Assembly: GCA_964355375.1 (NCBI GenBank)
Contig: CAYHFE010000001.1
Location: forward strand, 27,891 to 75,989
DNA length: 48,099 bases
From: an uncultured Verrucomicrobiota bacterium
Lineage (GTDB): Bacteria > Verrucomicrobiota > Verrucomicrobiia > Limisphaerales > SIBE01
Reading direction: 5' to 3'
Shown here: piece after piece, positions 1 to 17,658 of the stretch
How the letters are laid out: each line of letters starts with the position of its first letter
Position numbering within the stretch: position 1 is the first letter of the stretch
Program-made: the position numbers and the translations under genes
The notes under the pieces: generated by a model
Seen by the model: only the letters and a program-made list of their open reading frames with translations
Told to the model about the DNA's origin: nothing
The model's database searches: none

Positions 1-279
1 CGGAACGCGGTGGATGCGTCGCTTCAGACCAAAGGAGAAGTCCGGCTCGGTTGGAAGAAGGTTCCGGGCTACGTCGAGATTACGGTGGAAGATGAAGGTC
101 CAGGGCTTTCCAACACCACCAACCTCTTTGTGCCATTCTTCACGACCAAGCCGGGCGGCACGGGGATTGGGCTGACCCTGAGCCGGCAGATTGCCGAGGC
201 TCACGGCGGCAGTCTGTCGCTTCAGACCAAGGCGGAAGGTGGCGGTTGTATCGCGACGCTGCGATTGCCGATCAACTGA
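1..279 (+). CDS. sensor histidine kinase, C-terminal HATPase_c part (5' end lies outside the window)
   Basis: The frame is open from base 1. The translation contains the ATP-lid motifs 'VEDEGPGL' and 'FTTKPGGTGIGLTLSRQIAEAHGGSL', typical of HATPase_c. Stop at 277-279. Confidence 0.85.
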   Translation, partial: RNAVDASLQTKGEVRLGWKKVPGYVEITVEDEGPGLSNTTNLFVPFFTTKPGGTGIGLTLSRQIAEAHGGSLSLQTKAEGGGCIATLRLPIN

Positions 280-639
280 CCGGTCACGCCTCGTCCAATG
301 GTTATCGCGAAGGCTCGCGCTTCCTTGGCGACGAAGGCTTCCTCGTTCCGCGCCGGGCAGCAACCTTGCTGGCCGCAACCCCACCACCATGAAGCGCACC
401 TTGCGCCGCAACAGCGCGCGCTGGAAACGAAGTTCACTTGCGTTGAGCGAGGGCGCGGCCACGGGTCAGACTTCTCCTCAACCTTTCGAGCGGCGGATGC
501 TCCAGCAAAATGAGCGGGTGCCGCACATTGTCCGGGTCGGCCTCGGGACGCACCGCCAGCACAGCGCGGACGGACTTCATCAGCCGCGCCGCCCATCGCT
601 TGGCCTTGCGCGTCCGCGCCGCATACGCTCTCCGCTTCG

Positions 640-705
640 ACCGAGTCCCTCGCCCGCGGGAGCGGGAGAGGGTGGCCGCAGGCAGGGTGAGGGTTGTGGG
701 GCTGA
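640..705. repeat. GC-rich REP-like hairpin element
   Basis: Imperfect hairpin 647-672 ('ccctcgcccgc' ggga 'gcgggagaggg') followed by a G-rich tail 'ggtgagggttgtgggg'. It lies in non-coding DNA between the kinase and the helicase and truncates the ORF fragment at 754-849. Confidence 0.4.
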
Positions 706-753
706 ACACTTCGATCGGCGAGGGTGGGGTGAGGTGTCGCTCCCGGATTCACA

Positions 754-849
754 CCCAAATCCGTAAAGGTGCGCGCCGCTGATGGTGGCCAACAACAGCG
801 GATAAGGCTGGGCCGCGACGATGCGCTGGAGTCGTGGATCAATGGTCAT
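754..849 (-). pseudogene. N-terminal fragment of a nucleotidyltransferase (PF10127/RlaP-like family, from memory)
   Basis: An ATG at 849 opens 'MTIDPRLQRIVAAQPYPLLLATISGAHLYGF'. This resembles the 'llfatvSGSHLYGF' N-terminus of that family. The reading then runs into the REP-like element and loses similarity. The fragment overlaps the helicase stop by 11 nt. Confidence 0.3.
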
Positions 850-3800
850 TTTCAGGATGCCATAGACGCCTCAATTCCTCAGCGCGGCGAACAACTCGCT
901 CCACAACCTCAGCCTGCGGTTGCGCTGCCGGTGTCGAACTCGTCACGAGCTCCGGTGTGATATTCAATTCCTGCAAGCGCCGAAACACTGGCTGCAAGGC
1001 GCGGTCTTCATCGCGGAAGAAAAGGCTTCCGCGAATGCGAACAAATGTCCAACCGAGTCGTTCGAGAATCGCTTGGCGTTCGAGGTCTTCCTGAAGTTTC
1101 TCCGAGCCGTGAAATTGTTCGCCGTCGCACTCGATTGCCAATCGCTTGCCATTTCCGGTCACAACGAGGTCAATTGAATAAGCGCCGGCTGGAAACTCCG
1201 GCGTCACGTTGTATCGTTGCTCCATCAGCCGCCGCAGAACGACTCCCTGGAATTCTTTTGAGCGCGGGTCTGTCCGAGCCAGCCGTTTTTGCAACTCGCG
1301 TTCCCACGCGTTGGGGTCGAGCGCGTGTTCGATGAGGCGGCGGCGATAGTCACCGACCTGCAAATCGGTTTCGTGATTCAGGCTGTGGACAATCCACATC
1401 TGGTTACGGGCGCGGCTTGCCGCGACGTTGAAGCGCTTTTTGAAAATCTTCTTCGGCCCTTCTTGACGCATCGAAAGCGGCGGTTGTGCCGGCGGAGAAT
1501 CAACCACCGAAAGGAACATTACATCGCGCTCGTCACCTTGAAATTGCGCGGAGTCGCCACAGAGAATCTGGCGACGGCGATACTCGGCAGGCTCAAGACG
1601 CTGCCGCAGGATTGCGTCTATGCGCAACGCCTGCTTGTCGCCAACGAGCGAGACGACGCCAAAGCTGGAGCATTCCCGTTCGTGATTCACCGCGAATTCC
1701 GGTTGCTCGATGGCTGCGCAAATCAGCGATGCGACTGTTTCTGCTTCGACTTCGTTCACGTTGTCGCCCCGGTCGCGACCACTTGGAACTCGGTGAAAAA
1801 CGACGTGCGGTGTGAGCGGAATTGAGGAAGCTTCGCGCAGTGCTTTGATTTCTCCTTTGTAGGAAAGATCGTTGCTGAACGCGATGATATTCGGCGCGCA
1901 GCGAAAATGTTCCGTCAGCCGAATCACGCCACTGAAGGCAATTTGAGCGAGTTCGTAAACGGAGGTCGTTCCGTCGAAGAATGCTTTTAGGTCTATGCCG
2001 TCGAGATGAATCTTGATGAGATTCGTGACCTCTTGCATGTCCACCCCAACCGCTATGGGCGTAACCTGCTCGTCGTCTCCAACGATAATGGTCTGGTGTC
2101 CCAAGTAGAGCGCGAACAGCCCCGTCGGATCACATTGGCTGGCTTCATCAATAATGACGACATCGAACCTCGTCTTACGCGGATCGAATGTCTCGGCGGC
2201 TTCAGCAAGAGGCATGATCCATACCGGCACGGCGTCCTTTGCGGTCGCCATTTCTCTCCGTGCTGTTTCCAGAAATTCGGCGTCGCGAACGCCCTTGTGC
2301 GACTTGGTCAGCCTTTTTCGCGCTTCGGCATACGCACCCAATGCCCGCTTCTGCGCACTGGAAGTTTGCCGGATTTGGTTCAGCCACGTTTGTTTCTCGA
2401 CAAGTTGAGCGGTGACTTCGAGAAGCTGCTGTCCGAGGCGCTCGATTTGTTGCTGCAACTGATTGATGGAAACGCTTGCCCGTCTCTCCAGTTCATCGTG
2501 AAGCTGCCGCCATTCCCAAGCTGGGTGCGGGTCGCCCGCCGGTTGCGAGCCGCTATGCTGCGCGACACGATTTTCGATTGCTGATTTCCACGCTGGCGCA
2601 GTCTGCGCCATTCGTTCCAGCAGTTCACGCCGCCGGGCCAAATCGGATTCCAGATTTTTCAGTCGCGTCAATTCTTCGTGAGCCGATTGGTAGCTCGTTG
2701 GGGAAGCATCACGGATCGCCTGTCGCAATCGTTGTGTTGCCTGTGCTTCTGCGCCGTCTGATTCCGGAACTTGGTCGTGCCATGCGCGCAATGTCGCAAG
2801 CAGTCGTTTGTGTCTCAACCAACCGCTTCGCGATTGGAGAATCGGGCCGAGGTCGCCAAGCACCGCACTACGAATCCGGCGAAGCTCGGCGTTGTCTCCT
2901 GCTTCCGGCGCAGTGGAGTCCAGAAATGCGGCACACTGAAAACCAAGTTGCTGAAATTGATTTTCCAGGGGCTGCCAAGTGGACGTGTGCCATTCCAAGC
3001 AGAGTTGGATTTGCGGCACGAACTGTTTGCAGACCTGCTCTGGTCGTTCGCCCAATTCGGAACATGCGAGACCGCCCTGACACGCCATTTGGCGCTCCCA
3101 TCGTTCAACCAATTCGGAGCGAAGCTGTCGCATCCGCAGGAGCGCCCGCACTGCACGCAAGTGAGTGGCGTCATTCAGTTCCAAAGCGCGGCGGCCAACG
3201 CGAACCTTTTCCTTGAACTCGAACCAGTGCCGCTTCGTAAGCTTCGTGAGCAGGCCGAACGAATTGCCTGCGTCCTTGTGCTGGATAATTTCCTCGACCA
3301 TCGCCAGCAGTTCGTGTGGCGGGCGCGGGTCGGAAATCTCTGGACCATGTTCTATGACAAGAGCGTGGCACTCATAGACCTCACGCCATGTCGTTTGGAT
3401 TTTCTCCACCAAAGATTCCCATTCACGGCGAGCGATGTCGCCATCGCGACCAGCTTGGACAGCCAGCAGTTGCCACGGCGCGCTCTCACGCAGAAACTCA
3501 ATCGTCTTGCTGGCGAATTCCAGCATCCGATCAAACTCCGCGAGTTCGTCAGGCTCAAGCGCGGAATCCCAAAGCTCCTCACGAAGCCGAAGGTTTTGTT
3601 CGCCCAACGCAACCAACTCCTCAACTGCGTTTCTGAATTGGTTTGGGGTTGGCAACCTGGACAAATCCGGTCGGTAGCCAGCGAGTTCGCGCTCGTCATC
3701 GAGAGAAACGCGAGCGTTGGTTTGGTAGAGCGCCGCGACTTCTGGGTGCGATAGCGGCAGGCTCGCGCCCAAACTCACCGGGCTAGGAATCCAGTCGTCT

Positions 3801-5473
3801 GTTCCGACGCCTTCCTTGACGCGCCTGGCCGCGACAATTGGCCGCATGGATTTTCCACCAAACACGACATCGCGGATTTCATCCTGCCGCGCGTCGAGAA
3901 GCTTCTCGCGCGCACTACGCAAGGCATCCAGAATGCGCTTTCGCTCCCACGAGCAAAGGTTTGCGTCTCGTTCCAACAGACGCTCATCTTCGCTGAGGCG
4001 AACGTGAATCTTGCGAACGGACGCTTGGAGTTCCTCCTGGCTCTGTTTGTCGTTGTGAAGGACGCTGATGCAAAGCGGTTGGAGCGGCTCGACAACTTTC
4101 TGACGAAGCACGCGCAGCGCCTTGGGTGTGTGGGCAGTGACAAGCACACGCTTACCCTGCGAGAGCAGGTGGCCGAGCAGGTTTGCAATCGTGTGAGTTT
4201 TGCCTGTGCCAGGCGGCCCTTGCACGAGCACACAATCGCGTCGCATGAGTTGCTTGGCGATTTCGAGTTGCTCGCGATTGGCGGGCTTGCTCAAGAGCAC
4301 TTCATCATCCTCGTTGCCAAAACTCTGCCCGCCGGAATGAACCTCAGCCGAGACAGGGCCGCACGCCTCCAGTCCGAGGATTTGCAGCAAGGACGAGGGA
4401 AAGATTTCGCGGTTGGCGATGTCCTCCAAGACTAAATCGAAAATGTTTGCCGGCCCAGTTCGCCGCTGTCGCATGAAGATGGCTGGCTGGCGGTGAATGA
4501 CAGGAGCGCTCTGGTCTGGTGTAGCTCGCGGCTGATTGAACAAGTCTGAGCGAGAAGAAGCCTCACTTTGTTCCTCCTCTGCCACTCTGCCGCTGCTCGG
4601 GAACAGCCCTTGGATTAGCCGGCGCAAGAAACCGTCAGTATCGTCACCGCCCATCGGCGCGAATTCCGCTTTCTTCAACTCGTCAGCGCAACGCGCAAGC
4701 TGTTGCGCGTTCACTCCCGGCAGGACACGGAGAAATTCCATATAAAGCTCCGGCTGTTGCTCTCGCTTTCGGAAAACAAACTGCGGCTGGCGCTTTTCGG
4801 GGTAGAATTCGAGTTCCAACTTCTGAAGAAGCACCGGATGGCGAAACTTTTCACCGATTTCCGGGACGCACTGCAACAAGCCGTCGCCAACCAGCAACTC
4901 CATGCGCTCGCCTTCACGCTCTTGAACTCCATACCACTCGTAAACGGTTTGGAAGAACGCCAGCGATTGGCGAGCGGGTTGCTCGTTCGTCACCCACTGT
5001 TCACGCTGCTGCTGCCAAGCCCGGAGCAGTGAAGGACGGCGCGAATCTGCGTCGAACCGCTCAATAATCGTTCTGCCTTCTCTGTCCGCCGCGTTTCGTG
5101 TCGGCTGGATTTCAACCGAGCCGGGAAGTTCCCGCCAGCCCGGTCTCAACCATTCCGCCAACGCCGGAGGCGGCGGCGGGCACTGCGTGATGACGGGTCG
5201 CGTCAGCCGCAGCACGATGTCGCTGTCCCGAATCTCTTCTTCCGATTTGCCAACGTCTCGAAACAGTTCAACCGACGGATGCGACGGAAGGTCTTTCAGC
5301 CAGAGCGACCGCGGCTGTTGAGCGATGTTGCGAACAGGCGGGAAGCGAAGGTCTGTGTATGCCTTGAGAAACTCAAAGAGCTTGGTCAACCGCTCGCGCA
5401 TTGGCTGCGTATTTGGTTGGTCGCTCATGGTTTGATTGTGCCGAGGTTTTAACAGGCAAACAAGTTCACCCAT
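839..5473 (-). CDS. giant SF1 (Upf1/DNA2-like, AAA_11/AAA_12) helicase fused to a C-terminal DUF559/Vsr-fold endonuclease domain; Hhe-like defence protein
   Basis: 1544-aa ORF. Helicase motifs: Walker A 'VQGPPGTGKTHT', motif II 'VVIIDEASQ', 'VGDDEQV', 'EHFRCAPNIIAFSN', 'QFQGDERDVMFLS', 'RFNVAASRARNQMWIV'. The C-terminus 'YSIDLVVTGNGKRLAIECDGEQFHGS...ILERLGWTFVRI' matches DUF559/Vsr-like nucleases. The more likely start is the ATG at 5428 ('MSDQPNTQ'), 20 nt after the upstream ORF stop. Confidence 0.9.
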   Translation of the reverse strand: MGELVCLLKPRHNQTMSDQPNTQPMRERLTKLFEFLKAYTDLRFPPVRNIAQQPRSLWLKDLPSHPSVELFRDVGKSEEEIRDSDIVLRLTRPVITQCPPPPPALAEWLRPGWRELPGSVEIQPTRNAADREGRTIIERFDADSRRPSLLRAWQQQREQWVTNEQPARQSLAFFQTVYEWYGVQEREGERMELLVGDGLLQCVPEIGEKFRHPVLLQKLELEFYPEKRQPQFVFRKREQQPELYMEFLRVLPGVNAQQLARCADELKKAEFAPMGGDDTDGFLRRLIQGLFPSSGRVAEEEQSEASSRSDLFNQPRATPDQSAPVIHRQPAIFMRQRRTGPANIFDLVLEDIANREIFPSSLLQILGLEACGPVSAEVHSGGQSFGNEDDEVLLSKPANREQLEIAKQLMRRDCVLVQGPPGTGKTHTIANLLGHLLSQGKRVLVTAHTPKALRVLRQKVVEPLQPLCISVLHNDKQSQEELQASVRKIHVRLSEDERLLERDANLCSWERKRILDALRSAREKLLDARQDEIRDVVFGGKSMRPIVAARRVKEGVGTDDWIPSPVSLGASLPLSHPEVAALYQTNARVSLDDERELAGYRPDLSRLPTPNQFRNAVEELVALGEQNLRLREELWDSALEPDELAEFDRMLEFASKTIEFLRESAPWQLLAVQAGRDGDIARREWESLVEKIQTTWREVYECHALVIEHGPEISDPRPPHELLAMVEEIIQHKDAGNSFGLLTKLTKRHWFEFKEKVRVGRRALELNDATHLRAVRALLRMRQLRSELVERWERQMACQGGLACSELGERPEQVCKQFVPQIQLCLEWHTSTWQPLENQFQQLGFQCAAFLDSTAPEAGDNAELRRIRSAVLGDLGPILQSRSGWLRHKRLLATLRAWHDQVPESDGAEAQATQRLRQAIRDASPTSYQSAHEELTRLKNLESDLARRRELLERMAQTAPAWKSAIENRVAQHSGSQPAGDPHPAWEWRQLHDELERRASVSINQLQQQIERLGQQLLEVTAQLVEKQTWLNQIRQTSSAQKRALGAYAEARKRLTKSHKGVRDAEFLETARREMATAKDAVPVWIMPLAEAAETFDPRKTRFDVVIIDEASQCDPTGLFALYLGHQTIIVGDDEQVTPIAVGVDMQEVTNLIKIHLDGIDLKAFFDGTTSVYELAQIAFSGVIRLTEHFRCAPNIIAFSNDLSYKGEIKALREASSIPLTPHVVFHRVPSGRDRGDNVNEVEAETVASLICAAIEQPEFAVNHERECSSFGVVSLVGDKQALRIDAILRQRLEPAEYRRRQILCGDSAQFQGDERDVMFLSVVDSPPAQPPLSMRQEGPKKIFKKRFNVAASRARNQMWIVHSLNHETDLQVGDYRRRLIEHALDPNAWERELQKRLARTDPRSKEFQGVVLRRLMEQRYNVTPEFPAGAYSIDLVVTGNGKRLAIECDGEQFHGSEKLQEDLERQAILERLGWTFVRIRGSLFFRDEDRALQPVFRRLQELNITPELVTSSTPAAQPQAEVVERVVRRAEELRRLWHPENDH

Positions 5474-5643
5474 TCCCGCCGTGCCTTGATGAGGAAGCGG
5501 TTCGCCGCTTCGTAGTCGGGGCGCTCGTGCAGTTTAGCTTCGGCCAGGACGCGTTCGAAGTCGCAGTGCAGTTTCTCAAGCCGGGGTGTCTGCGCCCAGC
5601 CACCGAATCCGGATTGCGGCAGTTCTGCGCGGTTCGGTTTCAT
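5449..5643 (-). CDS. hypothetical small protein (64 aa), paralog of the ORF at 5919-6077
   Basis: Its ATG overlaps the upstream ORF stop (ATGA at 5640-5643). Third-position GC is high. It shares 'ERPD..AANRFLIKAR' with the 52-aa ORF, and one nucleotide difference between the copies is synonymous (aac/aat). Confidence 0.5.
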   Translation of the reverse strand: MKPNRAELPQSGFGGWAQTPRLEKLHCDFERVLAEAKLHERPDYEAANRFLIKARREWVNLFAC

Positions 5644-5885
5644 TCCGGTGGTTTCCCTTGCACTCGATACGACAGAGGCTCTTCACGCAAAACGCCCGGG
5701 TCCGGCACGGATCGCGCCGGGCGCAGGGCATCCAGCAGGGCCAGCTTTTCCTCAATGGGCCGGGCGGCGAGGCGTTGCCGGAAGTCGCGCTTGCCTTGCA
5801 GAATCTTGGAAAGATCGAAGGTCATGTCGGTTTGCATCTGATTGATCGCCGCGATGGTGTTCCTGATGTTCATCGGTTCAATCAT
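5640..5885 (-). CDS. hypothetical small protein (81 aa)
   Basis: ORF 'MIEPMNIRNTIAAINQMQTDMTFDLSKILQGKRDFRQRLAARPIEEKLALLDALR...' is co-directional with the 64-aa ORF and the helicase and is translationally coupled to them. I recognise no family. Confidence 0.5.
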   Translation of the reverse strand: MIEPMNIRNTIAAINQMQTDMTFDLSKILQGKRDFRQRLAARPIEEKLALLDALRPARSVPDPGVLREEPLSYRVQGKPPE

Positions 5886-5918
5886 CTCGCGGGCATATTG
5901 CCAGCCGTCCTGCCGGAT

Positions 5919-6077
5919 TCAAAGTGGATTGAGACTGGCCATTTCCTGCCGTGCCTTGATGAGGAAGCGATTCGCCGCTCCCGCCGTGCTCGCGCACCGT
6001 CGCGGCAGGTCGTCGTCGGGGCGTTCCAGTGTGTTCGGCGGGCGGGTGAAAGGTTTCGCGGCAGCTTTCTTTGTCAT
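5919..6077 (-). CDS. hypothetical micro-protein (52 aa), paralog of 5449-5643
   Basis: Translated by hand: 'MTKKAAAKPFTRPPNTLERPDDDLPRRCASTAGAANRFLIKARQEMASLNPL'. It is below the ORF-track length cut-off. A ~38-nt stretch (5944-5980) is near-identical to 5474-5510. Its stop lies 33 nt upstream of the 81-aa ORF. Confidence 0.4.
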   Translation of the reverse strand: MTKKAAAKPFTRPPNTLERPDDDLPRRCASTAGAANRFLIKARQEMASLNPL

Positions 6078-6257
6078 TCCCTGAGTTGGGAAAACCTGGC
6101 CGGAATGAAAAGCGTTTTGGCTCGGTTCGCCGGGCGCGGCAGGCCGGACGCCCGCACGGCCTTCACATCGTCACGTAAATCTCATTTCCCTTCTCCGGAA
6201 ACTCGCGGGACCTTTCTTCCATCCCCTTTTTCAAGGCTGCTTCGTCACAGATTTCTT

Positions 6258-6819
6258 TCACGGCCACGATTCCAGTTTCAGTCCGCTGACCCGCTGGAAC
6301 TCGCGACCGTTGTTGGTGACGAGCGTGAGGCTACCGGGGACTGCCTGCCCGGCGATGAGCAAGTCGTAAGGCCCGATGGACGCACCCTGGAGCTCCAGTT
6401 CCGCGCGAATGTTCGCGGCGGCCTCCGCGCCCGCACGGTCGAGCGGCACTTCAGCGATGGCGGAAACAAATCGCTCCACCTTCGGCCGTTCTTTCGCCAG
6501 GTCTTGCGCCTTTGCCAGCCCGCAAAATAATTCATTAGAAAGAGCAGTTGGAGCCGCGAAACACGCGAACCACGCTAAAGCCGATAAGATTCTGAAGAAT
6601 GCGCCACTCACTTACCGGGTGAAGACGCACGTTGGCTTAACGAATTCTCCTTTAGCGTAGTTGGCGTGTTTCGCGGTTTGAACTACCGGAATTAGGTTCA
6701 TAGACCGTGACCATGGAGACGGCACAATCCGTCGGCGCGACCTGGCTCAACCGTTGCACCAGGCCCGGTCGCTGGCGGAGCACGCCGATGCAGGTGTCAG
6801 TATCGAGCAGGTGGGTCAT
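6258..6819 (-). pseudogene. vapC: PIN-domain toxin VapC, interrupted by a 166-bp insertion
   Basis: The N-terminal 41 codons (6819-6697) read 'MTHLLDTDTCIGVLRQRPGLVQRLSQVAPTDCAVSMVTVYE'. The C-terminal 90 codons (6530-6258) read 'LFCGLAKAQ...GPYDLLIAGQAVPGSLTLVTNNGREFQRVSGLKLESWP'. Joined, they give a typical 131-aa VapC. The insertion shifts the frame. Confidence 0.85.
6531..6696. mobile_element. MITE-like non-autonomous insertion inside vapC
   Basis: 166 bp flanked by the direct repeat 'ttcat' (6531-6535 and 6697-6701). A ~28-nt imperfect inverted repeat has a perfect 13-bp core, 'ccgcgaaacacgc' (6555-6567) against 'gcgtgtttcgcgg' (6664-6676). It has no coding capacity. Confidence 0.7.
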
Positions 6820-6828
6820 GGCGGCAGC

Positions 6829-7059
6829 CTAAAAAGGTTTTGCGGGGGGCAGTTGTCCCTGGTCGGGCCGCGAAAATGCCGGGTCGGTGATGTGAATCGA
6901 ATCAAAGAAGCCTTCGGGCCAGGTTTTCGGTTTCAACGGCTCCAACACAATCGCCTCGCCTTCGTGACGGACGCCAACCGTGGGCGTGGAGATGTGAAAG
7001 CCTTTCGGGAGGCACACGGTCTGGCATTCGCCTTCGTGGATGACGGTTGCTGTTTCCAT
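6829..7059 (-). CDS. vapB: AbrB/MazE-fold antitoxin VapB
   Basis: 'METATVIHEGECQTVCLPKGFHISTPTVGVRHEGEAIVLEPLKPKTWPEGFFDSI...' is the SpoVT/AbrB-type antitoxin pattern. It ends 9 nt upstream of the vapC ATG. Confidence 0.85.
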   Translation of the reverse strand: METATVIHEGECQTVCLPKGFHISTPTVGVRHEGEAIVLEPLKPKTWPEGFFDSIHITDPAFSRPDQGQLPPAKPF

Positions 7060-7144
7060 AATCGTGTTCGGTCAAGCGTACTCTTACGGGCGACAACTTA
7101 CCACGTTTCACACTTTCGCGTAAATCTCGTTTCCCAGCTCCGCA

Positions 7145-7264
7145 GCAGTTCTCATTTTGACAAGTATGTAGTCCCGGCTTCAGCCGGTCGCCAGGTGAAA
7201 CCGGCTGAAGCCGGGACGACATGCGTGGAACGGACAGTGTCCTGAGTCAAAATGAGAACTGCGG
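7145..7264. mobile_element. MITE-like element with nested perfect hairpins
   Basis: Perfect 17-bp terminal inverted repeats (7145-7161 'gcagttctcattttgac' and 7246-7262). An inner perfect 17-bp stem pairs 7171-7187 with 7201-7217. The element is flanked by the 11-bp direct repeat 'ccagctccgca' (7134-7144 and 7265-7275). Confidence 0.6.
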
Positions 7265-7564
7265 CCAGCTCCGCAAAAACTCGGGGATTTTCTGTCCATT
7301 CGCGCTTGGCAAAGACAGAGCGAAGCGGCGAGTTGTCTTGTGCGAGCGAAGATCATCTCGACGTTTTCCCACTTGCGGGACGCCCTTATCCCAGCGGTGG
7401 GATACCCAGCCAAGCTGGTTCATCGGCGGGCAGCCTTCGGATGTTTGAAAACCAAGTGGTTGCGCGATTTCAGGATGCTGGCACGGGGACTGCAAATAGG
7501 CACGCGGGTTTCCAACGAGGGTGAGTTGGAATGTATGAATCGAAAACTTAACCGAACCGTTGAT

Positions 7565-7825
7565 ATGCCTGTCATTGCTAAATTCTATGGAATTGTCATC
7601 CGGATGTTGTTCATCCAGCCTTTCGTCGCCCATTTTCACGCCTTTTACGGAGAGAGCGAACTCGTGGTGGGAATCAACCCGCTGAAGGTCCTCCAAGGCG
7701 ATGCCCCGGGCCGGGCTCGTTCGATGGTGATGGAGTGGGCGCGGCAACATCAGCGAGAGCTTCTGGAGGACTGGAGTCGGTTGGGCAGGGCGCAGGGCGC
7801 GCAGCCGATTGAACCACTCGTGTGA
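7565..7825 (+). CDS. DUF4160 domain protein
   Basis: From the ATG at 7565: 'MPVIAKFYGIVIRMLFIQPFVAHFHAFYGESELVVGI...LPGRARSMVMEWARQHQRELLEDW'. This matches the DUF4160 pattern 'FYGI.I.MY...H.PPHFHA.Y'. Confidence 0.8.
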   Translation: MPVIAKFYGIVIRMLFIQPFVAHFHAFYGESELVVGINPLKVLQGDAPGRARSMVMEWARQHQRELLEDWSRLGRAQGAQPIEPLV

Positions 7826-7826
7826 T

Positions 7827-9092
7827 ATGGATATTGCCCGTCCAGATGCGGCCAGAGCGCGGCGTCGGCGCCGCCTGCTTTACTCCGCCGGGAGTTTGGT
7901 GGTGCTCATTGCGATCACGCTCGGCTTGGCCAGGTTGAAGCCGGCCGCGCCGACGGTGGACCGGGCGCAAGTCTGGTTGGACACCGTCAAGCGAGGGGAA
8001 ATGCTCCGGCAAGTGCGCGGGAACGGCACCCTTGTGCCAGAGGAGATTCACTGGATTCCCGCCATGACCCCGGGCCGCATCGAACGCATCCGGGTGCTCC
8101 CGGGCGCGGAGGTCAAGGCGGACACCATCCTCGTGGAACTGGCCAATCCCGAAGTCGAACAAGCGGCCCTGGATGCCGAATGGCAGCTTAAAGCGGCCGA
8201 GGCTCAATCCAACAAGCTCAAGGTCCAGCTCGAAAGCGACCGTCTCAGCCAGGTGGCCCAAGCGGCTCAACTCAACTCAGAGTGTCTGGTCGCGAAGGTG
8301 GACGCGGAAGCAGACACCAAGCTCGAAGCCGAAAAGCTCGTTGACCGCCTCACCGCGCTGCGCTCGCGCACCAAATCCGAGCAATTGATCTTGCGCTGCG
8401 AGTTGGAGCAGAAGCGCCTCATCATTTTGGAACAAAACCACCAGGCGCAACTCGCCGCGCAGCAGGCGGAGTTGGAGAGATTCCGCGCCCTTCTGGCCCT
8501 CAAACGCAAACATCAGGCTGAACTCACGGTCCGCGCCGGGATTGACGGCGTGCTCCAGCGCCTGGGTGATCGCGATCCGCTTCAAGTCGGCCAACAACTC
8601 GCCGCCGGCGCAAACATCGCCCGCGTGGCGGATCCGGCCAAACTCAAAGCCGAGATCAGGGTGGTCGAAACCCAGGCCAAGGACATCGCCCACGGCCAGA
8701 AGGCGGTCATAGACACCCGCAACGGCACGGTTTCCGGGCGGGTGACGCGCATTGATCCTGCAGTCCAGAACGGCACCGTGACCGTGGATGTGGCGCTGGA
8801 AGGTCCCTTGCCGAAAGGAGCACGGCCTGATCTCACGGTGGAAGGCGTCATCGAGCTCGAGCTGCTCGCCAATGTCCTCTACGTCGGTCGCCCGGTGCAG
8901 GGCCAGTCGGAGAGCACCGTCGGGCTTTTCAAGCTCGACCCGGACGGTCACGACGCGACGCGCGTGCCCGTCAAACTCGGTCGCAGTTCGGTGAGCACTA
9001 TCGAGATTCTCGAGGGCCTCCGCGAGGGCGACCGCGTGATTCTCTCCGACATGTCCCAGTGGGACGCGCATAACCGGGTGAGACTCAATTAA
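7827..9092 (+). CDS. HlyD/MacA-type periplasmic adaptor (membrane fusion protein)
   Basis: N-terminal TM segment, a coiled-coil hairpin rich in A/Q/L/E, and a beta-barrel C-terminus ('GTVSGRVTRIDPAVQNGTVTVDV'). The ATG at 7827 is preferred over the TTG at 7809. Confidence 0.9.
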   Translation: MDIARPDAARARRRRRLLYSAGSLVVLIAITLGLARLKPAAPTVDRAQVWLDTVKRGEMLRQVRGNGTLVPEEIHWIPAMTPGRIERIRVLPGAEVKADTILVELANPEVEQAALDAEWQLKAAEAQSNKLKVQLESDRLSQVAQAAQLNSECLVAKVDAEADTKLEAEKLVDRLTALRSRTKSEQLILRCELEQKRLIILEQNHQAQLAAQQAELERFRALLALKRKHQAELTVRAGIDGVLQRLGDRDPLQVGQQLAAGANIARVADPAKLKAEIRVVETQAKDIAHGQKAVIDTRNGTVSGRVTRIDPAVQNGTVTVDVALEGPLPKGARPDLTVEGVIELELLANVLYVGRPVQGQSESTVGLFKLDPDGHDATRVPVKLGRSSVSTIEILEGLREGDRVILSDMSQWDAHNRVRLN

Positions 9093-9178
9093 TCCAAATG
9101 GTCCGGGGCGGGCGGTTCGTTGAAACCAAGTATCCGGACCATCCGCCGCGGACCAGGAACAATGAAAACAAACAACGT

Positions 9179-9934
9179 ATGACTACAAATGGTTCTCTCA
9201 TCAAACTGGAAGCGATCACGAAGGTGTTCTACACCGACGAGGTCGAAACCCACGCACTCTCGGGCGTCCATCTCGAGATTCGGAAGGGCGAGTACGTCTC
9301 GATTGCCGGCCCGTCTGGCTGCGGCAAGTCCACGCTGCTCGCGATTCTCGGCCTGCTCGACACGCCGACTGACGGGCGCTACGCGCTCAACGATCAGGAC
9401 GTTTCCAACCTCGACCACGCCGCGCGCGCGCGCATCCGCAACCGCGAGGTGGGCTTCATCTTTCAGAGCTTCAACCTCATCGGCGATCTCACGGTGTATG
9501 AGAACGTGGAGTTGCCGCTGACGTATCGCAACCTTCCCGCCGCCGAACGCAAACAGCGCGCGAACGAAGCGCTCGAAAAGGTCGGCATGTCGCATCGCAT
9601 GAAGCATTACCCGTCGCAGCTTTCGGGTGGCCAGCAGCAGCGGGTGGCCGTGGCCCGCGCTCTCGGCGGCAAACCCTCCATCCTGCTCGCGGACGAACCG
9701 ACTGGCAATCTCGACTCCAAGAACGGTGAAGCGGTGATGGAATTGTTGCGCGACCTGCACCGCGAAGGCGCGACGATCTGCATGGTCACGCACGACCAAC
9801 GCTTCGCGCGGCATGCGGATCGGACCGTGCATCTGTTTGATGGACGCATCGTGGACGAGGACTTGGGGGCACAGCGAGCGAATGAATCTCTGGATACGAT
9901 TGCTGCGGCGCAAGGCCAAGCCTCATTCAAGTGA
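9179..9934 (+). CDS. ABC transporter ATP-binding protein, MacB/LolD type
   Basis: Walker A 'GPSGCGKST', signature 'LSGGQQQRVAVARAL', Walker B 'ILLADEPTGNLD', H-loop 'VTHD'. The ATG at 9179 ('MTTNGSLIKLE') is preferred over 9098. Confidence 0.93.
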   Translation: MTTNGSLIKLEAITKVFYTDEVETHALSGVHLEIRKGEYVSIAGPSGCGKSTLLAILGLLDTPTDGRYALNDQDVSNLDHAARARIRNREVGFIFQSFNLIGDLTVYENVELPLTYRNLPAAERKQRANEALEKVGMSHRMKHYPSQLSGGQQQRVAVARALGGKPSILLADEPTGNLDSKNGEAVMELLRDLHREGATICMVTHDQRFARHADRTVHLFDGRIVDEDLGAQRANESLDTIAAAQGQASFK

Positions 9935-9985
9935 CACGTCTCGTGGCCCTCTGGCTGGAGAAAGAGCATCCTGCGCCAACGGATG

Positions 9986-10031
9986 TCCTGAACACTGAAT
10001 ACTGAACACTGAACACTGAGCACTGAGCACG
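9986..10031. repeat. tandem heptanucleotide repeat (YMCTGAR, about 6 units)
   Basis: 'tcctgaa cactgaa tactgaa cactgaa cactgag cactgag cacg', ending 5 nt before the ATG of the first ADOP gene. Confidence 0.85.
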
Positions 10032-10036
10032 TCCCC

Positions 10037-12583
10037 ATGAACGACCTCCGCTTCGCCCTCCGCATGTTGCTGAAGAAGCCCGGCTTCACTTTGGTAGCCA
10101 TGCTAACCCTTGCCCTCGGAATTGGTGCCAACACCACCGTGTTCAGCCTGGTCAACGCCTTCCTGCTCCGCCCAATGGTCGGCCAGCGCGAGGGCGAGCT
10201 TGTCCAGTGTTACAGCCGCGATACAGGGCGACCGGACACTTATCGTCCCTTCTCCTATCCGAACTACCTCGATCTGCGTGAGCAGAACCAGGTTTTTTCC
10301 CATTTGCTCGCTTATGAGCTGGCGGAGGTGGGAGTCACCGAGGACGAGGTTTCCCGGCGGGTGATGACCTGCCTGGTGACTGCCAACTACTTCACGACTT
10401 TTGGCATCATCATGGCCCGTGGACGAACCTTCAGTGCTGAGGAGGAGCAACCCGGCAGCACCATCCCTGTGGTGATTCTCAGCCACAGCGCGTGGATGGC
10501 TCGCGGAGGAGACCCGGACATTCTCGGAAAGACCCTCAGGATTGAAAACCGGCCCCATACCATCGTCGGCGTGGCGCCGCCGGACTTTACCCACCCGATG
10601 ATGATCGTGTCGCCTCAGTTTTGGCTGCCGCTGGGAATGCATGATGCGCTGCAGCGTCCTTCGGTTTCGGGCAAGGTCACGCACTTGTCGGATCGCAGCC
10701 AGCATAGTCTGTTGGTGGTTGGCCAGCTCAAACCCGGCGTCACACGGCCCGGCGCCGACGCCGACCTGCATCGCCTGGCAGTTCAAATGCAGACGGCATT
10801 CCCGGCGGAGAACAAGGACCAGACGATCCTCGTCCATCCCCTCCCTCGACTGACCATCGGCCCTTGGCCTGAGGTCGGGAGTGCCGGACGGGCCTTTGTA
10901 GTTGGTCGCATCACTCCAATGCTCTTCGCTCTGGCCGGGGCGGTCCATCTGATCGCCTGTCTAAATCTCGCGAACCTGCTTCTGGCTCGGGCATCTGGGC
11001 GACGCAAGGAAATCGCTCTGCGCCTCGCACTTGGCGCCCAGCGCTTCCAGATCATGAGGCAGTTGTTGATGGAGGCAGCCTTGCTGTCTCTGCTGGGGGG
11101 AGGTGTGAGTGTCCTTCTGGCCGCCGGGTCCACTCGATGGTTTGCTCTGTCAGCCATTCCTGCGCTTCCGTATATCCCGGTGGTCAATGCGACCCCTGAT
11201 TTGCGTGTGCTCGCCGCGACTGCGGGATTTTGCATGTTAAGCATCCTGCTGTTTGGCCTGGTGCCGGCCTGGCGCCTTTCGCGTCCCGACCTGGCAGAAG
11301 ACCTCAAGGAGCGCGGGAGTGAACCCGTCTCAGCGATTTCGGGAAGAGGTTTGTTTGCGATGCGCAACCAGTTGGTTATTGCCCAACTGATGATCTCCCT
11401 AGCCTTGTTAATTACGGCCGCTCTCTTTATTCGCGGCGCCATCAACGCGGCCCGCGTGAACCCCGGATTCGAGCTGAAGAATGGCCTGGTGGTTGAAGTG
11501 GACGCGGCCATGGCGGGTTACGATGAGGTGCGCGGTCGCCAAACTCTTCAAGCATTGGTGGAACGGTTACGGGGATTGCCAGGAGTGGAGAGTGTCAGTC
11601 TTGCGGCCTCAGTTCCGTTTGGGTTCAGGGAAGGGCGGGAGGTCAGCCGGGTGGGAGTCACACCGATGGAGTCGGCGAAGGTGGAGTCCGCCTCTGCGGA
11701 CGGGTGGTTCGGAGCCGACTACAATGTTGTGGGAGCGGATTACTTCCAAACGGTGCGGCTGCCACTCCTGAGCGGGCGTGAATTCAACCCAACGGAAATG
11801 GAGCCCGGACCAGCCACGAGTGTGGCGGTCATTGACCAGGATCTGGCGAACAAACTGTGGCCCGGCGAGCAAGCTCTGGGCCGCCAGTTGCAGGTGGCGA
11901 GTGGCACGCCGGCAGAGGCCCCACGGATTCTGGAGATCGTTGGTGTAGTCCCAACCGTGCGCAACAACATCATTGAGTCGCGACCGGTACCACACCTGTA
12001 CGTTCCCTCGGGGCGTGAATATCGTTCCAAGATGTACCTCCATTTGCGTGTGGTGCCACGAGGTCGCGCGAACGAGCTGGCCTTGCTTCGAGTCGTACGA
12101 GATGCCATCCGCGCGATGGATCCGATATTGCCTGTAACCTCACTGAAACCGCTGGCGGATCTGCCGAAAGACACGCGCGATTTGTGGTTGGTGAAGTCCG
12201 GAGCCCAGATGTTCGTGGTTTTCGGGTGTTTGGCCCTGGTCCTGGCCCTGGTTGGAGTCTATGGCGTCATGAGCTTCGCGGTAGCTCGTCGCACCCGGGA
12301 GATTGGTATCCGGATTGCCTTGGGCGCCACAGCGTCCAAGGTGCTTTGGATGACGCTGCGCGAAGGATTGCTGCTGACCGCCGTCGGCTTGGGCCTTGGA
12401 GTATTACTTGCGGCAGCGGCAGGTCGGTTGCTTGGCGGTTTGTTGTATGGAGTTAGCTCCTTGGATCCTCTGGCTTTCACCTTCGCTCCTCTGTTGCTGG
12501 CAGCGACTGCCACTTTGGCGTGCTACTTCCCGGCGCGCCGTGCGGTCAAAGTGGATCCCATGGTGGCACTGAGAAATGAATGA
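10037..12583 (+). CDS. ADOP-family duplicated FtsX/MacB-type ABC permease, paralog 1
   Basis: 848 aa. Has the family-typical N-terminus 'MNDLRFALRMLLKKPGFTLVAMLTLALGIGANT', two MacB_PCD+FtsX halves, and the C-terminus '[17 protein letters not shown]'. Confidence 0.92.
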   Translation: MNDLRFALRMLLKKPGFTLVAMLTLALGIGANTTVFSLVNAFLLRPMVGQREGELVQCYSRDTGRPDTYRPFSYPNYLDLREQNQVFSHLLAYELAEVGVTEDEVSRRVMTCLVTANYFTTFGIIMARGRTFSAEEEQPGSTIPVVILSHSAWMARGGDPDILGKTLRIENRPHTIVGVAPPDFTHPMMIVSPQFWLPLGMHDALQRPSVSGKVTHLSDRSQHSLLVVGQLKPGVTRPGADADLHRLAVQMQTAFPAENKDQTILVHPLPRLTIGPWPEVGSAGRAFVVGRITPMLFALAGAVHLIACLNLANLLLARASGRRKEIALRLALGAQRFQIMRQLLMEAALLSLLGGGVSVLLAAGSTRWFALSAIPALPYIPVVNATPDLRVLAATAGFCMLSILLFGLVPAWRLSRPDLAEDLKERGSEPVSAISGRGLFAMRNQLVIAQLMISLALLITAALFIRGAINAARVNPGFELKNGLVVEVDAAMAGYDEVRGRQTLQALVERLRGLPGVESVSLAASVPFGFREGREVSRVGVTPMESAKVESASADGWFGADYNVVGADYFQTVRLPLLSGREFNPTEMEPGPATSVAVIDQDLANKLWPGEQALGRQLQVASGTPAEAPRILEIVGVVPTVRNNIIESRPVPHLYVPSGREYRSKMYLHLRVVPRGRANELALLRVVRDAIRAMDPILPVTSLKPLADLPKDTRDLWLVKSGAQMFVVFGCLALVLALVGVYGVMSFAVARRTREIGIRIALGATASKVLWMTLREGLLLTAVGLGLGVLLAAAAGRLLGGLLYGVSSLDPLAFTFAPLLLAATATLACYFPARRAVKVDPMVALRNE

Positions 12584-12630
12584 AGAGAAGCGAGTTGGAG
12601 TGAAGCGTGATACGCGACGCAGTCTGAAAA

Positions 12631-12663
12631 CGACCGACCGACCACGGACCACGGACCACGGAG
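12631..12663. repeat. tandem tetramer (cgac x3) plus heptamer (cacggac x3) repeat
   Basis: 'cgaccgaccgac cacggac cacggac cacggag', lying 27 nt upstream of the ATG of ADOP paralog 2. Confidence 0.8.
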
Positions 12664-12690
12664 TGGATAATTGACAACGGGCAACGACCC

Positions 12691-15099
12691 ATGAACGACC
12701 TCCGCTTCGCCTTCCGCCAGTTGTGCAAGCACCCCGGCTTCACCGCCGTGGCTGTGCTGACGCTCGCGCTGGGCATCGGGGCGAACAGCGCCCTGTTCAG
12801 CCTGGTGAACAAGGTCTTGTTAAGCCCGCTGCCCTTTCCGGACCCGGAGCGCCTGATGTTGCTCCACGCGACGGACCTGGCCAACAACAGGGAGGAGATG
12901 GGGGTATCAGGACTCGACTACCTCGACTGGTGTGCCGGCTCGAAGTCCTTTGCCGCCATCGGAGCGGTTCAGTTTGGAGGCAAACTCAACCTCTCCGGCC
13001 GCGGAGAACCCGTGGCGCTCCGCGGCGTTCTGGTCACCCCGAGTTTCTTCGACGTGTTCGAGTTCCCCATGCGGCTGGGGCGGAAATTTCGCCAGGACGA
13101 GTCCGAGCCCGGAATGGAGAAGGTGGTCGTTCTGAGTCATGGCCTCTGGCAGCGCGTCTTTGGCGGCGATACGAATATCATCGCTCAGACGGTCACGCTC
13201 GATGGTGAATCTTACGTAGTGGTTGGTGTCGGTGCGCGCGTGTCGGGCTTCCTCGAAGAAATGCTTGAAATCTACGCGCCCCTGCCCGACGCGCAGTTGC
13301 GGGCCAGCCGCGGCAACGCGACTCTGACCGTCTTTGGACGGCTGAGGCCGACGGTCTCGGTGGAACAGGCGGCGGCCGAACTCCGCACGATCACCGCGGC
13401 CATTGGGTTGGAGCATCCAGGCTACAAGAACCGCAGCGCCACAGTCGTTCCGCTCCGCGACCGCTTGGTGAGAGAGGTCCGTCCGGCGTTCCTGGTGCTG
13501 TATGCCGCGGTGTTGCTGGTGTTGGGCATCGCTTGCGCCAACGTCGCCAACCTCCTGTTGGCTCGCGGGGAAGCCCGTCGCAAGGAGATCGCCGTCCGCG
13601 CCGCCCTGGGCGCGGGTCGCGGGCGGATCATTCGACAACTGCTGACGGAGAGCGTGCTGCTCTCGCTGGCCGGCGCCGCGGTGGGATTGGCCTTCGCCCA
13701 GTTTGGCCTTGAGCTGCTGCGATATTACGCGCCCAGAATCGGCGACGAACCCGTGCCGTTCCTCGACGAAATCGAGATTGATGGCCGGGTGCTGCTCTTC
13801 ACCCTGGGGGTCGCCGTATTGACCGGAATCCTCTTTGGCCTGGCCCCAGCCTGGAGTGCGGCCAAGGTCAATCTGATGGACACGCTCAAGGAGGCCTCGC
13901 GCGGCAGCTCGGGGACCGTGCGGAGTCATCGTCTGTTGAACTCGTTCGTCGTCACCCAATTGGCGCTCTCCGTGGTGTTGCTGGTGGGCGCGGGTCTGCT
14001 CGTGCGGAGCTATGCCCGTCTGACGCGGGTCCATCCGGGCTTTGACCCCAGCCAGTTGCTGACGATGGCAACGGAACTTTCGCACGCCCCCTACACGAGC
14101 GAGGCCCGGCGCCGGCAGTTCTACCAGGCGGTGTTGGAAGCGGTGCGCGCCCTGCCGAACGTGGAGTCGGCCGAGGCCATCAACATTCTCCCCATGAACG
14201 GCCGCGGTGCCGGCATGTCATTTGACTTGGAGGGCGCCGAACCGCTGCCGCCCGGACGCTTCCGAATGGCCGAGTATGGGATCGTCAGTCCCGGTTGTTT
14301 CCAGGCGATGCGGATTCCGTTGCGGCAAGGCCGGCACCTGACGCCGGCCGATGACGGCCAGCACCAGGTCGCGCTGGTCAACGAGGCATTCGTGCGCCGC
14401 CACCTGCCCGATGTGAATCCGCTGGGCCGGCGGATCAGGCAACACACCGGCCAGACCAACTGGGTTGAGATCGTCGGCGTCGTGGCGGATGTGAAGGACT
14501 CCGGGCTGGGGCACAAGACTCGGCCGGCCCTCTATCAGCCGCTCACCCAAACGTGCTGGTCCCGGATGTCACTGGTGATCCGGACCCGGGGGGAGCCCGC
14601 GCGCCTCGCGCGCACCGTGCAGGAGCAAATCTGGCGAATCGATGCGGCGCAGCCCGTGACCAATATCAAACCCATGCAAGAGTGGGTCCGCCAATCGGTC
14701 TCCGTCGAGCGGTTTTCGGCGGAACTGCTGCTGGGCTTCGCGTTGATCGGCCTGGTTCTGGCTGCCATTGGCCTCTTTGGTGTGCTGGCTTACGCCGTGA
14801 GCCAGCGGACGCACGAATTTGGGATCCGGCTGGCGATGGGTGCTCAGATCGGTGAGATCCTCCGCCTGGTGCTGATCCAAGGCTTGAAGGTGGCCGGACT
14901 GGGCTTGGGACTCGGACTCGCCGGCGCGCTGGCGTTGAGCGTGGTCTTGCAGAGTCTCCTCTTCGAAATGCGCGCCCAGGATCCGCTGACGTTCCTCGTC
15001 GTCGTCCTCTTTCTCGGGTTGGTCGCCCTGGCCGCCTGTTATCTGCCAGCCCAGCGAGCCACGAAGGTTGATCCGATGGTGGCTCTAAGATGCGAATAG
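12691..15099 (+). CDS. ADOP-family duplicated FtsX/MacB-type ABC permease, paralog 2
   Basis: 802 aa. N-terminus 'MNDLRFAFRQLCKHPGFTAVAVLTLALGIGANS', C-terminus '[11 protein letters not shown]'. Confidence 0.92.
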   Translation: MNDLRFAFRQLCKHPGFTAVAVLTLALGIGANSALFSLVNKVLLSPLPFPDPERLMLLHATDLANNREEMGVSGLDYLDWCAGSKSFAAIGAVQFGGKLNLSGRGEPVALRGVLVTPSFFDVFEFPMRLGRKFRQDESEPGMEKVVVLSHGLWQRVFGGDTNIIAQTVTLDGESYVVVGVGARVSGFLEEMLEIYAPLPDAQLRASRGNATLTVFGRLRPTVSVEQAAAELRTITAAIGLEHPGYKNRSATVVPLRDRLVREVRPAFLVLYAAVLLVLGIACANVANLLLARGEARRKEIAVRAALGAGRGRIIRQLLTESVLLSLAGAAVGLAFAQFGLELLRYYAPRIGDEPVPFLDEIEIDGRVLLFTLGVAVLTGILFGLAPAWSAAKVNLMDTLKEASRGSSGTVRSHRLLNSFVVTQLALSVVLLVGAGLLVRSYARLTRVHPGFDPSQLLTMATELSHAPYTSEARRRQFYQAVLEAVRALPNVESAEAINILPMNGRGAGMSFDLEGAEPLPPGRFRMAEYGIVSPGCFQAMRIPLRQGRHLTPADDGQHQVALVNEAFVRRHLPDVNPLGRRIRQHTGQTNWVEIVGVVADVKDSGLGHKTRPALYQPLTQTCWSRMSLVIRTRGEPARLARTVQEQIWRIDAAQPVTNIKPMQEWVRQSVSVERFSAELLLGFALIGLVLAAIGLFGVLAYAVSQRTHEFGIRLAMGAQIGEILRLVLIQGLKVAGLGLGLGLAGALALSVVLQSLLFEMRAQDPLTFLVVVLFLGLVALAACYLPAQRATKVDPMVALRCE

Positions 15100-15114
15100 A
15101 GAACCAGATTTCTT

Positions 15115-17553: not shown

Positions 17554-17616
17554 AGAACGAGAATGCCAAATGAAGAAGGCGTCCCAGACCGTTTGCAGCC
17601 ACGCTCTCGCTCGGAG

Positions 17617-17644
17617 CCGCTCCTTCTGCCTTCGACCTCCTGTC
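17617..17644. repeat. 14-nt tandem repeat x2
   Basis: 'tgccttcgacctcc' then 'tgtcttcgaccttg', lying 14 nt upstream of the ATG of ADOP paralog 4. Confidence 0.7.
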
Positions 17645-17658
17645 TTCGACCTTGCCCT

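Follow-up and report, generated by a model that had tools for sequence, protein, structure and literature searches.

In a 48,099-nucleotide stretch of contig CAYHFE010000001.1 from an uncultured Verrucomicrobiota bacterium (hereafter the window, numbered from its first letter), a large gene for a helicase–nuclease is preceded on the same strand by three small open reading frames (ORFs) of 52, 81, and 64 amino acids (aa). A preliminary description, made from the letters alone, had read this arrangement as a four-gene variant of the antiphage system Hhe in which the small ORFs encode partners of the helicase. Our analysis makes it very likely that the locus is instead a single-gene helicase–nuclease lying in a decayed variable slot between two genes of the RlaP family, one RlaP-like and one RlaP, and not a four-gene system. 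Judged by their sequences, the small ORFs are leftovers of other genes, and the multi-gene reading is refuted.

The layout from which that reading started was accurately described: the four ORFs lie where they had been placed. The 52-aa ORF is separated by 33 nucleotides (nt) from the 81-aa ORF, which in turn overlaps the 64-aa ORF at an ATGA, and 20 nt lie between the stop of the 64-aa ORF and the helicase ATG at 5428. The near-identical direct repeat reported in the 52- and 64-aa ORFs is also present (35 of 37 nt identical), one base away from the coordinates first given for it. In the list below, NT175 and p68 denote a 175-aa gene and a gene typically of 68 aa that are intact at other loci, and loci fetched for comparison carry the prefix L.

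839-5473, minus strand: helicase ORF in its longest form, 1544 aa (ORF list)
839-5428, minus strand: helicase–nuclease gene, 1529 aa (Pfam, PADLOC, homologue N termini, motif conservation, and substitution rates)
5449-5643, minus strand: 64-aa ORF (tail copy B), derived from the 3′ end of an RlaP-like gene
5640-5885, minus strand: 81-aa ORF, a fusion of the start of NT175 to p68
5919-6077, minus strand: 52-aa ORF (tail copy A), a decayed second RlaP-like 3′ end
5473-5509: direct repeat copy 1 (repeat family D7), encoding AANRFLIKAR
5943-5979: direct repeat copy 2 (repeat family D7), 95% identical to copy 1

The helicase–nuclease is intact and under purifying selection

An ORF of 1544 aa does exist, as the preliminary description had it, but homologues of the protein begin MSDQPNTQ, and the true start is therefore the ATG at 5428, which gives a protein of 1529 aa. 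This protein consists of an N-terminal domain with no recognised fold, an Upf1-like superfamily 1 (SF1) helicase split by an insertion of ~550 aa, and a C-terminal MTES_1575/DUF559 nuclease of the PD-(D/E)xK type (Pfam matches to AAA_11, E = 3.3e-21; AAA_12, 8.4e-13; MTES_1575, 8.1e-26, with 90.4 bits against a cut-off of 38.2; and DUF559, 2.5e-6), and its nearest sequence matches in the PDB are Sen1, Dna2, and Upf1. Numbered from the methionine at 5428, Walker A (GPPGTGKT) occupies residues 404-411, motif II (DEASQ) follows at a distance of ~680 aa at 1094-1098, motif VI (NVAASRA) lies at 1334-1340, and the nuclease residues D1420 and E1433 are intact. The helicase motifs and the nuclease D and E are invariant in 31 homologues with identities down to 34–39%, which, together with the Pfam matches, bears out the initial recognition of a full set of SF1/Upf1 motifs and a C-terminal nuclease of the DUF559/Vsr fold.

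The first ~400 aa had resembled nothing recognisable, and the searches agreed: this region has no Pfam match, and comparison of its AlphaFold model (predicted local distance difference test score of 71.8) with the PDB gave no fold match, the best hit having an E value of 0.21 and a template-modelling (TM) score below 0.2. In the homologue alignment both this region and the long insertion are conserved features of the helicase family, for which a search at E ≤ 1e-10 gave 4,968 homologues (the top 120 of them full length and 59–92% identical), with the source names Verrucomicrobiota, Haliangiales, Syntrophus, and Terriglobales. Codon alignments gave ratios of nonsynonymous to synonymous substitution rates (dN/dS) of 0.12 against the helicase of L034 and 0.09 against that of L030, and the gene is therefore under purifying selection.

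Among the PADLOC profiles the best match was PDC-S37 (E = 1.4e-53 for residues 402-1519 on profile positions 298-1356 of 1550, as a raw profile match without PADLOC's coverage rules). Like the window gene, PDC-S37 encodes an SF1 helicase and a C-terminal nuclease in a single large gene, but the N-terminal 400 aa of the window protein fall outside the match, such that the N-terminal quarter of the profile and that of the protein are both unmatched. The PADLOC match to Hhe (6.5e-38) covers only the C-terminal third of the helicase. Scored against the NCBIfam models, the protein reached 144.9 bits for Hhe (NF042953, Hhe_antiphage, described as 'DUF4011 domain-containing anti-phage protein Hhe'; cut-off 2000), over residues 977-1516 only, and 164.1 bits for ProA (NF058533; equivalog cut-off 1500), over residues 749-1509. 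Our literature search found no paper on PDC-S37 and none that identifies ProA. Hhe and ProA each combine, in one large protein, an SF1 helicase with a Vsr/DUF559-type endonuclease, and their C-terminal halves align with the window protein; unlike them, the window protein scores far under the equivalog cut-offs, lacks a match to DUF4011 (absent from the 17 Pfam families at E ≤ 0.01), and has an N terminus with no fold match in the PDB. By these scores the helicase–nuclease is a relative of Hhe and not a member, so of the initial assignment to Hhe there stands the related helicase with its Vsr-fold nuclease but not the equivalog identity. It is a stand-alone gene with a probable anti-phage role.

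No partner genes accompany the helicase at other loci

The proposal that the 52-, 81-, and 64-aa ORFs are dedicated accessories of the helicase, acting as a regulator, an antitoxin-like brake, or a sensor, drew on their co-directional, tight packing, with the ATGA overlap and the 20-nt gap already described. The preliminary description itself named the absence of the small ORFs upstream of orthologous helicases as a ground for rejecting this proposal, and that absence is what we found. A tblastn search of 29 genome loci containing helicase relatives, many with upstream flank, found homologues of the small ORFs at no better than E = 0.09. They are likewise absent upstream of an 85%-identical helicase (L030–L033), which is preceded instead, at a distance of 133 nt, by a heavy-metal ATPase gene, and when we clustered the flanking ORFs of the helicase loci, no neighbour recurred except among obviously syntenic genomes. 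(Four helicases that are 83–92% identical, P0001, P0002, P0004, and P0006, lie on ~5-kb contigs with almost no flank and were left out of this context comparison.) Only L034, with a helicase 87% identical to that of the window, has 64-aa-like sequence directly upstream; this favours an accessory role, but L034 is entirely without p68. Moreover, the orthologue of the 52-aa ORF contains an in-frame stop, the same set of ORFs precedes unrelated genes elsewhere (a p283-like gene, a gene for a STAND nucleoside triphosphatase (NTPase), an Argonaute system, and the gene of a 486-aa protein), and all three small ORFs are pieces of other genes. We therefore regard a four-gene Hhe variant with dedicated accessories as highly improbable.

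The small ORFs are fragments of RlaP-like, NT175, and p68 genes

The 64-aa ORF derives from the last ~55 codons of a gene for a 320-aa RlaP-like nucleotidyltransferase and is read from an ATG that arises at the junction with p68. It matches 96 protein clusters, among them intact 320-aa RlaP proteins such as P0255, in which the match falls on the C terminus; tblastn places window positions 5598-5473 on residues 274-316 of P0255 with 70% identity. The RlaP-like homology ends at ~5465, as does the homology to L035, a locus that is syntenic with the window (86–92% nt identity over the DUF4160, HlyD-like, and MacB genes) and has the same structure of two tails around a cassette, with a different gene downstream. 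The 52-aa ORF is also an RlaP-like 3′ end, homologous over ~5937-6026 and carrying a 30-nt insertion (alignment A2; tblastn E = 5e-4), and it is interrupted by an in-frame TAG in the orthologous copy of L035. The suggestion that the 52- and 64-aa ORFs have a common ancestry and flank the 81-aa ORF is correct, both matching the C terminus of RlaP-like proteins. The 37-nt repeat is not a chance similarity, since each of its copies has homology to the 3′ end of an RlaP-like gene. We also considered it as an RNA motif, but an Rfam search at E ≤ 1 over positions 1-9000 returned a single chance snoRNA-like match inside the helicase gene, and protein-coding ancestry explains the repeat. A complete Pol-beta-type domain is found neither in the 64-aa ORF (which corresponds to residues ~264-318 of P0255), nor in the 52-aa ORF (~286-318), nor in a fragment at 757-849 downstream of the helicase (residues 1-31 of RlaP); because the catalytic core is absent, all three are remnants of RlaP-family genes.

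The 81-aa ORF is a fusion with two parts:

5826-5885, minus strand: start of the 81-aa ORF, comprising MIEP and the first 16 codons of NT175 (MNIRNTIAAINQMQTD, 5873-5826; 16/16 residues identical by tblastn; alignment A1)
5640-5825, minus strand: p68 gene, here lacking 7 codons (RERALAI), 79% identical to the p68 of L035

Alignment A1 shows that codons 17-175 of NT175 were cleanly deleted in the window, which fused the remaining codons in frame to p68. Intact NT175–p68 operons are found in L035–L038, where a 175-aa (or 163-aa) gene is followed by a 68-aa gene with an ATGA overlap. NT175 has >5,000 relatives and no Pfam match; its predicted model matches the MenT1 toxin (TM-scores 0.66/0.64, E = 5.8e-5, probability 1.00) at a sequence identity of 18%. 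The p68 family has 491 homologues, and p68 has no sequence similarity to PDB chains, including MenA1. In the MenAT1 system of M. tuberculosis, the 68-aa protein MenA1 is encoded upstream of the nucleotidyltransferase toxin MenT1 (PMC10435456). The NT175–p68 pair resembles MenAT1 in the fold of the NT175 model and in having as partner a protein without a recognisable domain whose length equals that of MenA1, and it differs from MenAT1 in the low identity of NT175, in the position of the small gene downstream rather than upstream, in the lack of a PDB sequence match for p68, and, in the window, in the deletion of the toxin-like gene. The deleted MenT1-like gene probably had p68 as its partner or antitoxin, and p68 may survive in the window as an orphan antitoxin-like gene.

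The helicase gene is joined to RlaP-like and RlaP sequences at both ends

Downstream of the helicase, too, the adjoining sequence belongs to the RlaP pair:

839-852, minus strand: 3′ junction, containing the last helicase codons (..NDH*) with the stop from the end of the RlaP-like gene and the RlaP ATG (849) embedded
757-849, minus strand: what is left of RlaP, its first 31 codons (MTIDPRLQRIVAAQPYPLLLATISGAHLYGF), with no homology further on (84% identical to the RlaP of L034 by tblastn; weak Pfam RlaP match over residues 3-37)

The nucleotidyltransferase fragment that the preliminary description had noticed overlapping the helicase stop is this RlaP start, running from 849 to 757. The 3′ junction of the window, AATGACCATTGA, equals the uninterrupted RlaP-like/RlaP junction of L101 and is the source of the helicase stop codon as well as of the RlaP ATG embedded there. 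The helicase ORF ends ..WHPENDH*, and its closest relatives outside RlaP slots run 15–20 residues further. On the 5′ side, the RlaP-like tail homology is followed by ~36 nt of helicase leader, the last 16 nt of which are common to helicases elsewhere. Both junctions are shared by L034 in an unrelated genomic context, with the RlaP-like gene internally deleted and the RlaP head duplicated around a peptidase gene, and in L038 a STAND NTPase gene lies between the same two remnants, in the position of the helicase.

Just past the truncated RlaP head, positions 376-618 (243 nt) share 91% identity with an insert in L051 (13145-13387) that has a copy of the RlaP head on each side; this element seems to target or accompany the 5′ end of RlaP.

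RlaP-like/RlaP junctions elsewhere hold variable cargo

RlaP was reportedly named by Burroughs and Aravind in 2016, in a founding paper that lies outside our comparison and may mention paired genes; we found no published description of a variable RlaP slot. Both flanking genes match PF10127 (2.3e-41 for the 320-aa RlaP-like protein and 2e-54 for RlaP). When we surveyed 80 metagenome loci with intact RlaP-like genes, 43 had a second RlaP gene downstream on the same strand, at intergenic distances that ranged from 6–51 nt (8 pairs) up to 6.1 kb; in the uninterrupted junctions that we inspected, the RlaP-like and RlaP genes overlap as GTGA or ATGA. The ORFs carried as cargo in the 43 pairs are nearly all co-directional and belong mostly to unrelated families. 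Matches from PADLOC and Pfam identified defence-type cargo (a PDC-M54A STAND protein, a NACHT NTPase, a type IIG restriction enzyme, TIR proteins, a PD-Lambda-4_A-like protein, DruA, an AbiJ-like protein, and SUKH), other cargo is of the RNA-repair type (Pnkp/Hen1, RNA ligase, Thg1, and HD plus kinase), and many large cargo proteins have no match in Pfam or PADLOC. At L119 (7386-12505, and likewise at L120, both fetched separately from the surveyed loci), the cargo is a class II prokaryotic Argonaute system, consisting of a helix-turn-helix protein, a Cas4-like PD-(D/E)xK nuclease, the Argonaute, and two unknown genes, and it is flanked on one side by an NT175–p68–tail cassette and on the other by a 54-codon remnant of the RlaP head. 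Outside the pairs, the neighbours are often RtcB, Pnkp/Hen1, or an enzyme of the CCA/poly(A)-polymerase type.

Cargo also turns over between close relatives: L115 and L117 are 95% identical in the flanking RlaP-like gene and 91% identical in the RlaP head, whereas their cargo differs (2.5 kb versus 6.1 kb). The junction thus has the properties of a hotspot, with conserved flanks, unrelated defence-type cargo, and turnover between close relatives, as counted from matches without a genome background. Pieces of the flanking genes are repeated around the cassettes, the RlaP-like tail in the window, L035, L044, L116, and L123, and the RlaP head in L034, L042, L051, and L117. Integration of a circle with a fragment of the flank by a single crossover, a putative mechanism, would leave such repeats.

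A separate arrangement occurs in L052, which has two tandem units of RlaP-like gene, cargo, and RlaP (3-5067 and 8001-13062); their cargo proteins, of 1381 aa and 1266 aa, both lack a Pfam or PADLOC match.

The slot resembles the cDHS1 and cDHS2 loci of Pseudomonas aeruginosa (PMC10250203) in that conserved genes enclose a highly variable content, rich in defence genes, which changes from one close relative to another. Unlike cDHS1 and cDHS2, it is framed by two paralogous genes for RNA-repair nucleotidyltransferases, which share a 4-nt overlap when nothing separates them; insertion takes place where the stop of one meets the start of the other, the cargo is co-oriented inside an operon, and duplicated parts of the flanking genes often lie on either side of a cassette. 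With respect to RlaP enzymes, the frequent position of the pair beside RtcB, Pnkp/Hen1, and CCA-type enzymes is in keeping with reports that link RlaP to RNA ligases, but the accounts that we compared describe RlaP as a lone gene in RtcB or ligase operons, with no paralogue pair around a variable insert, and the window retains only 31 RlaP codons and two RlaP-like tails of ~35–55 codons.

A different explanation of these pairs is that the RlaP-like gene, RlaP, and the gene between them form a functional tripartite system, in which the RlaP pair might, for instance, mend RNA ends that are damaged in the conflict where the cargo acts, and the junction would be a designed position for an effector rather than a passive hotspot. 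The almost invariable co-direction and close packing of the cargo between the two genes fits this idea, as do the RNA-repair functions of some cargo and outer neighbours (Pnkp/Hen1, RtcB, RNA ligase, Thg1, and CCA-type enzymes) and the activity of RlaP, which adds 1–2 nucleotides to damaged RNA 3′ ends (bioRxiv 10.64898/2025.12.29.696909). However, the cargo families are mostly unrelated and include DNA-targeting ones (the type IIG restriction enzyme, the Argonaute with its Cas4-like nuclease, and the helicase–nuclease), pairs with nothing between them are common, and the window, L034, L035, and L038 keep their cargo intact while their RlaP genes are fragments. We consider a tripartite system unlikely.

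The NT175–p68 cassette occupies the RlaP-like end of the slot

The cassette of a MenT1-like gene and a 68-aa gene is very abundant and was located at these positions:

L035, 5477-6386
L044, 2333-3193
L119, 6477-7335
L121, 6323-7204
L123, 5839-7368

In every context examined, the cassette is at the RlaP-like end of the slot. Most loci have copies of the RlaP-like tail on both sides of it; L119 has the downstream copy only, and L121 has a fragment of the RlaP-like head upstream instead. The tail copy downstream of p68 carries a derived 5-aa insertion that is common to the cassette loci.

This constancy raises the possibility that the cassette with its tail is kept as a generic leader, providing a promoter, translational coupling, or addiction for any downstream cargo and not for the helicase specifically. 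Seven independent loci have the cassette at the RlaP-like end with varied cargo downstream, the derived insertion shared by the p68-adjacent tails implies that cassette and tail travel as a unit, and the ORFs are open in the window. Nevertheless, in the window the toxin-like gene has been deleted and p68 lacks its 7 codons, many slots carry cargo without the cassette, and the database contains tail-derived ORFs with radical changes in an otherwise conserved motif. A consensus scan for promoters and terminators over 600-7400 gave matches at or below the shuffle expectation, with nothing near the small ORFs and no promoter at the cassette. A generic leader is, in our estimate, distinctly unlikely, somewhat more so than a tripartite system.

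The neighbourhood beyond the slot

Upstream of the small ORFs the window has the following features:

6049-7365, minus strand: block absent from the syntenic L035, containing vapB, the split PIN/vapC gene, and spacers (synteny breakpoints)
6829-7059, minus strand: vapB (VapB match)
6258-6819, minus strand: PIN/vapC gene, split (PIN match)
6546-6684: inverted-repeat element of ~139 nt that splits PIN/vapC (inverted repeat I1)

The 6546-6684 element has 35-nt inverted-repeat ends that are 86% complementary, and one arm has a 31-nt match in L006 at 90% identity. With vapB and a PIN gene split by such an element, the neighbourhood is as defence-island-like as the preliminary description had portrayed it. 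Between vapB and the DUF4160 gene lies a 28-nt inverted repeat (7161-7227; 11-nt loop, arms 89% complementary), which could be a hairpin or a further small repeat element. The DUF4160 gene (7340-7825, plus strand) diverges from the slot, is conserved in L035 and L036, and resembles the DhiT toxin (NCBIfam, 1.4e-16, below the cut-off); its true start is probably near 7565. Further away, 10034-19835 holds four tandem paralogues of MacB/FtsX-type ABC permeases (repeat families D1–D3, with a period of ~2.5 kb); the fetched stretch of L035 has two.

Discussion

A series of insertions and deletions in an RlaP pair, in the putative order given here, very probably produced the locus. In its intact form the slot consists of translationally coupled genes for a 320-aa RlaP-like protein and a ~255-aa RlaP, overlapping as GTGA or ATGA and often beside RNA-repair genes. 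The helicase gene entered exactly at the junction of the two, such that upstream it abuts the last RlaP-like codons, and downstream, having lost its own tail of ~18 codons, it reads into the ..NDH stop of the RlaP-like gene and overlaps the start codon of RlaP. In an earlier or parallel insertion, the MenT1-like 175-aa gene and its 68-aa partner came to lie at the RlaP-like end, with a copy of the RlaP-like 3′ end on each side. Deletion of the toxin-like gene to 16 codons created the 81-aa fusion ORF, loss of the body of the RlaP-like gene left two tail copies that read as the 52- and 64-aa ORFs, and RlaP was truncated after codon 31. The small ORFs would be by-products of the insertion of a cassette and of later deletion. 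The helicase–nuclease, for its part, most likely acts alone: its N-terminal domain and long insertion may sense foreign nucleic acid or load the protein onto it, the SF1 motor would translocate with ATP, and the C-terminal PD-(D/E)xK nuclease would then cut.

Several points weigh against this interpretation of a single gene in a decayed slot. Neither the p68 ORF nor the 64-aa ORF has been interrupted, and the two remain tightly coupled; their dN/dS values between the window and L035 (0.4 for each, on 13–16 differences only) neither show nor exclude constraint, and therefore their translation may persist. The differences between tail segments of the remnants are mostly synonymous, and either selection or independent origin from intact genes is possible. 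The cargo survey used our own ORF calls and 80 loci picked by their similarity to one RlaP-like protein. PDC-S37 is a candidate system only, and the defence role of the helicase family is one that we infer. Finally, the RlaP slot holds the helicase in only 2 of ~36 helicase loci, and because of this the slot says little about the function of the helicase.

For the slot itself, we tentatively suggest that the stop/start junction of the RlaP pair is a previously undescribed site of cassette exchange, at which defence and RNA-repair genes would be swapped in operon orientation, duplicated flank pieces would serve as homology handles for the excision and re-insertion of circles, and the window would be a decayed example with a helicase–nuclease and the remains of a MenT-like cassette. 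This reading is possible, if somewhat short of probable.

For annotation, the locus illustrates that three operon-like micro-ORFs beside a defence gene can be gene debris, here one fusion created by an in-frame deletion and two duplicated gene ends, and that such micro-ORFs should be compared with intact relatives before accessory proteins are proposed. The helicase family, being very large, highly conserved, and spread across phyla, would be a reasonable choice for single-gene defence assays. The RlaP-pair junction would provide a new, easily searchable variable slot, recognised by two conserved flanking genes with cargo between them, that could be used for mining uncharacterised defence genes, because many of its large cargo proteins have no match in Pfam or PADLOC. 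Such a slot would further prompt the question of why defence genes are embedded among genes for RNA repair.

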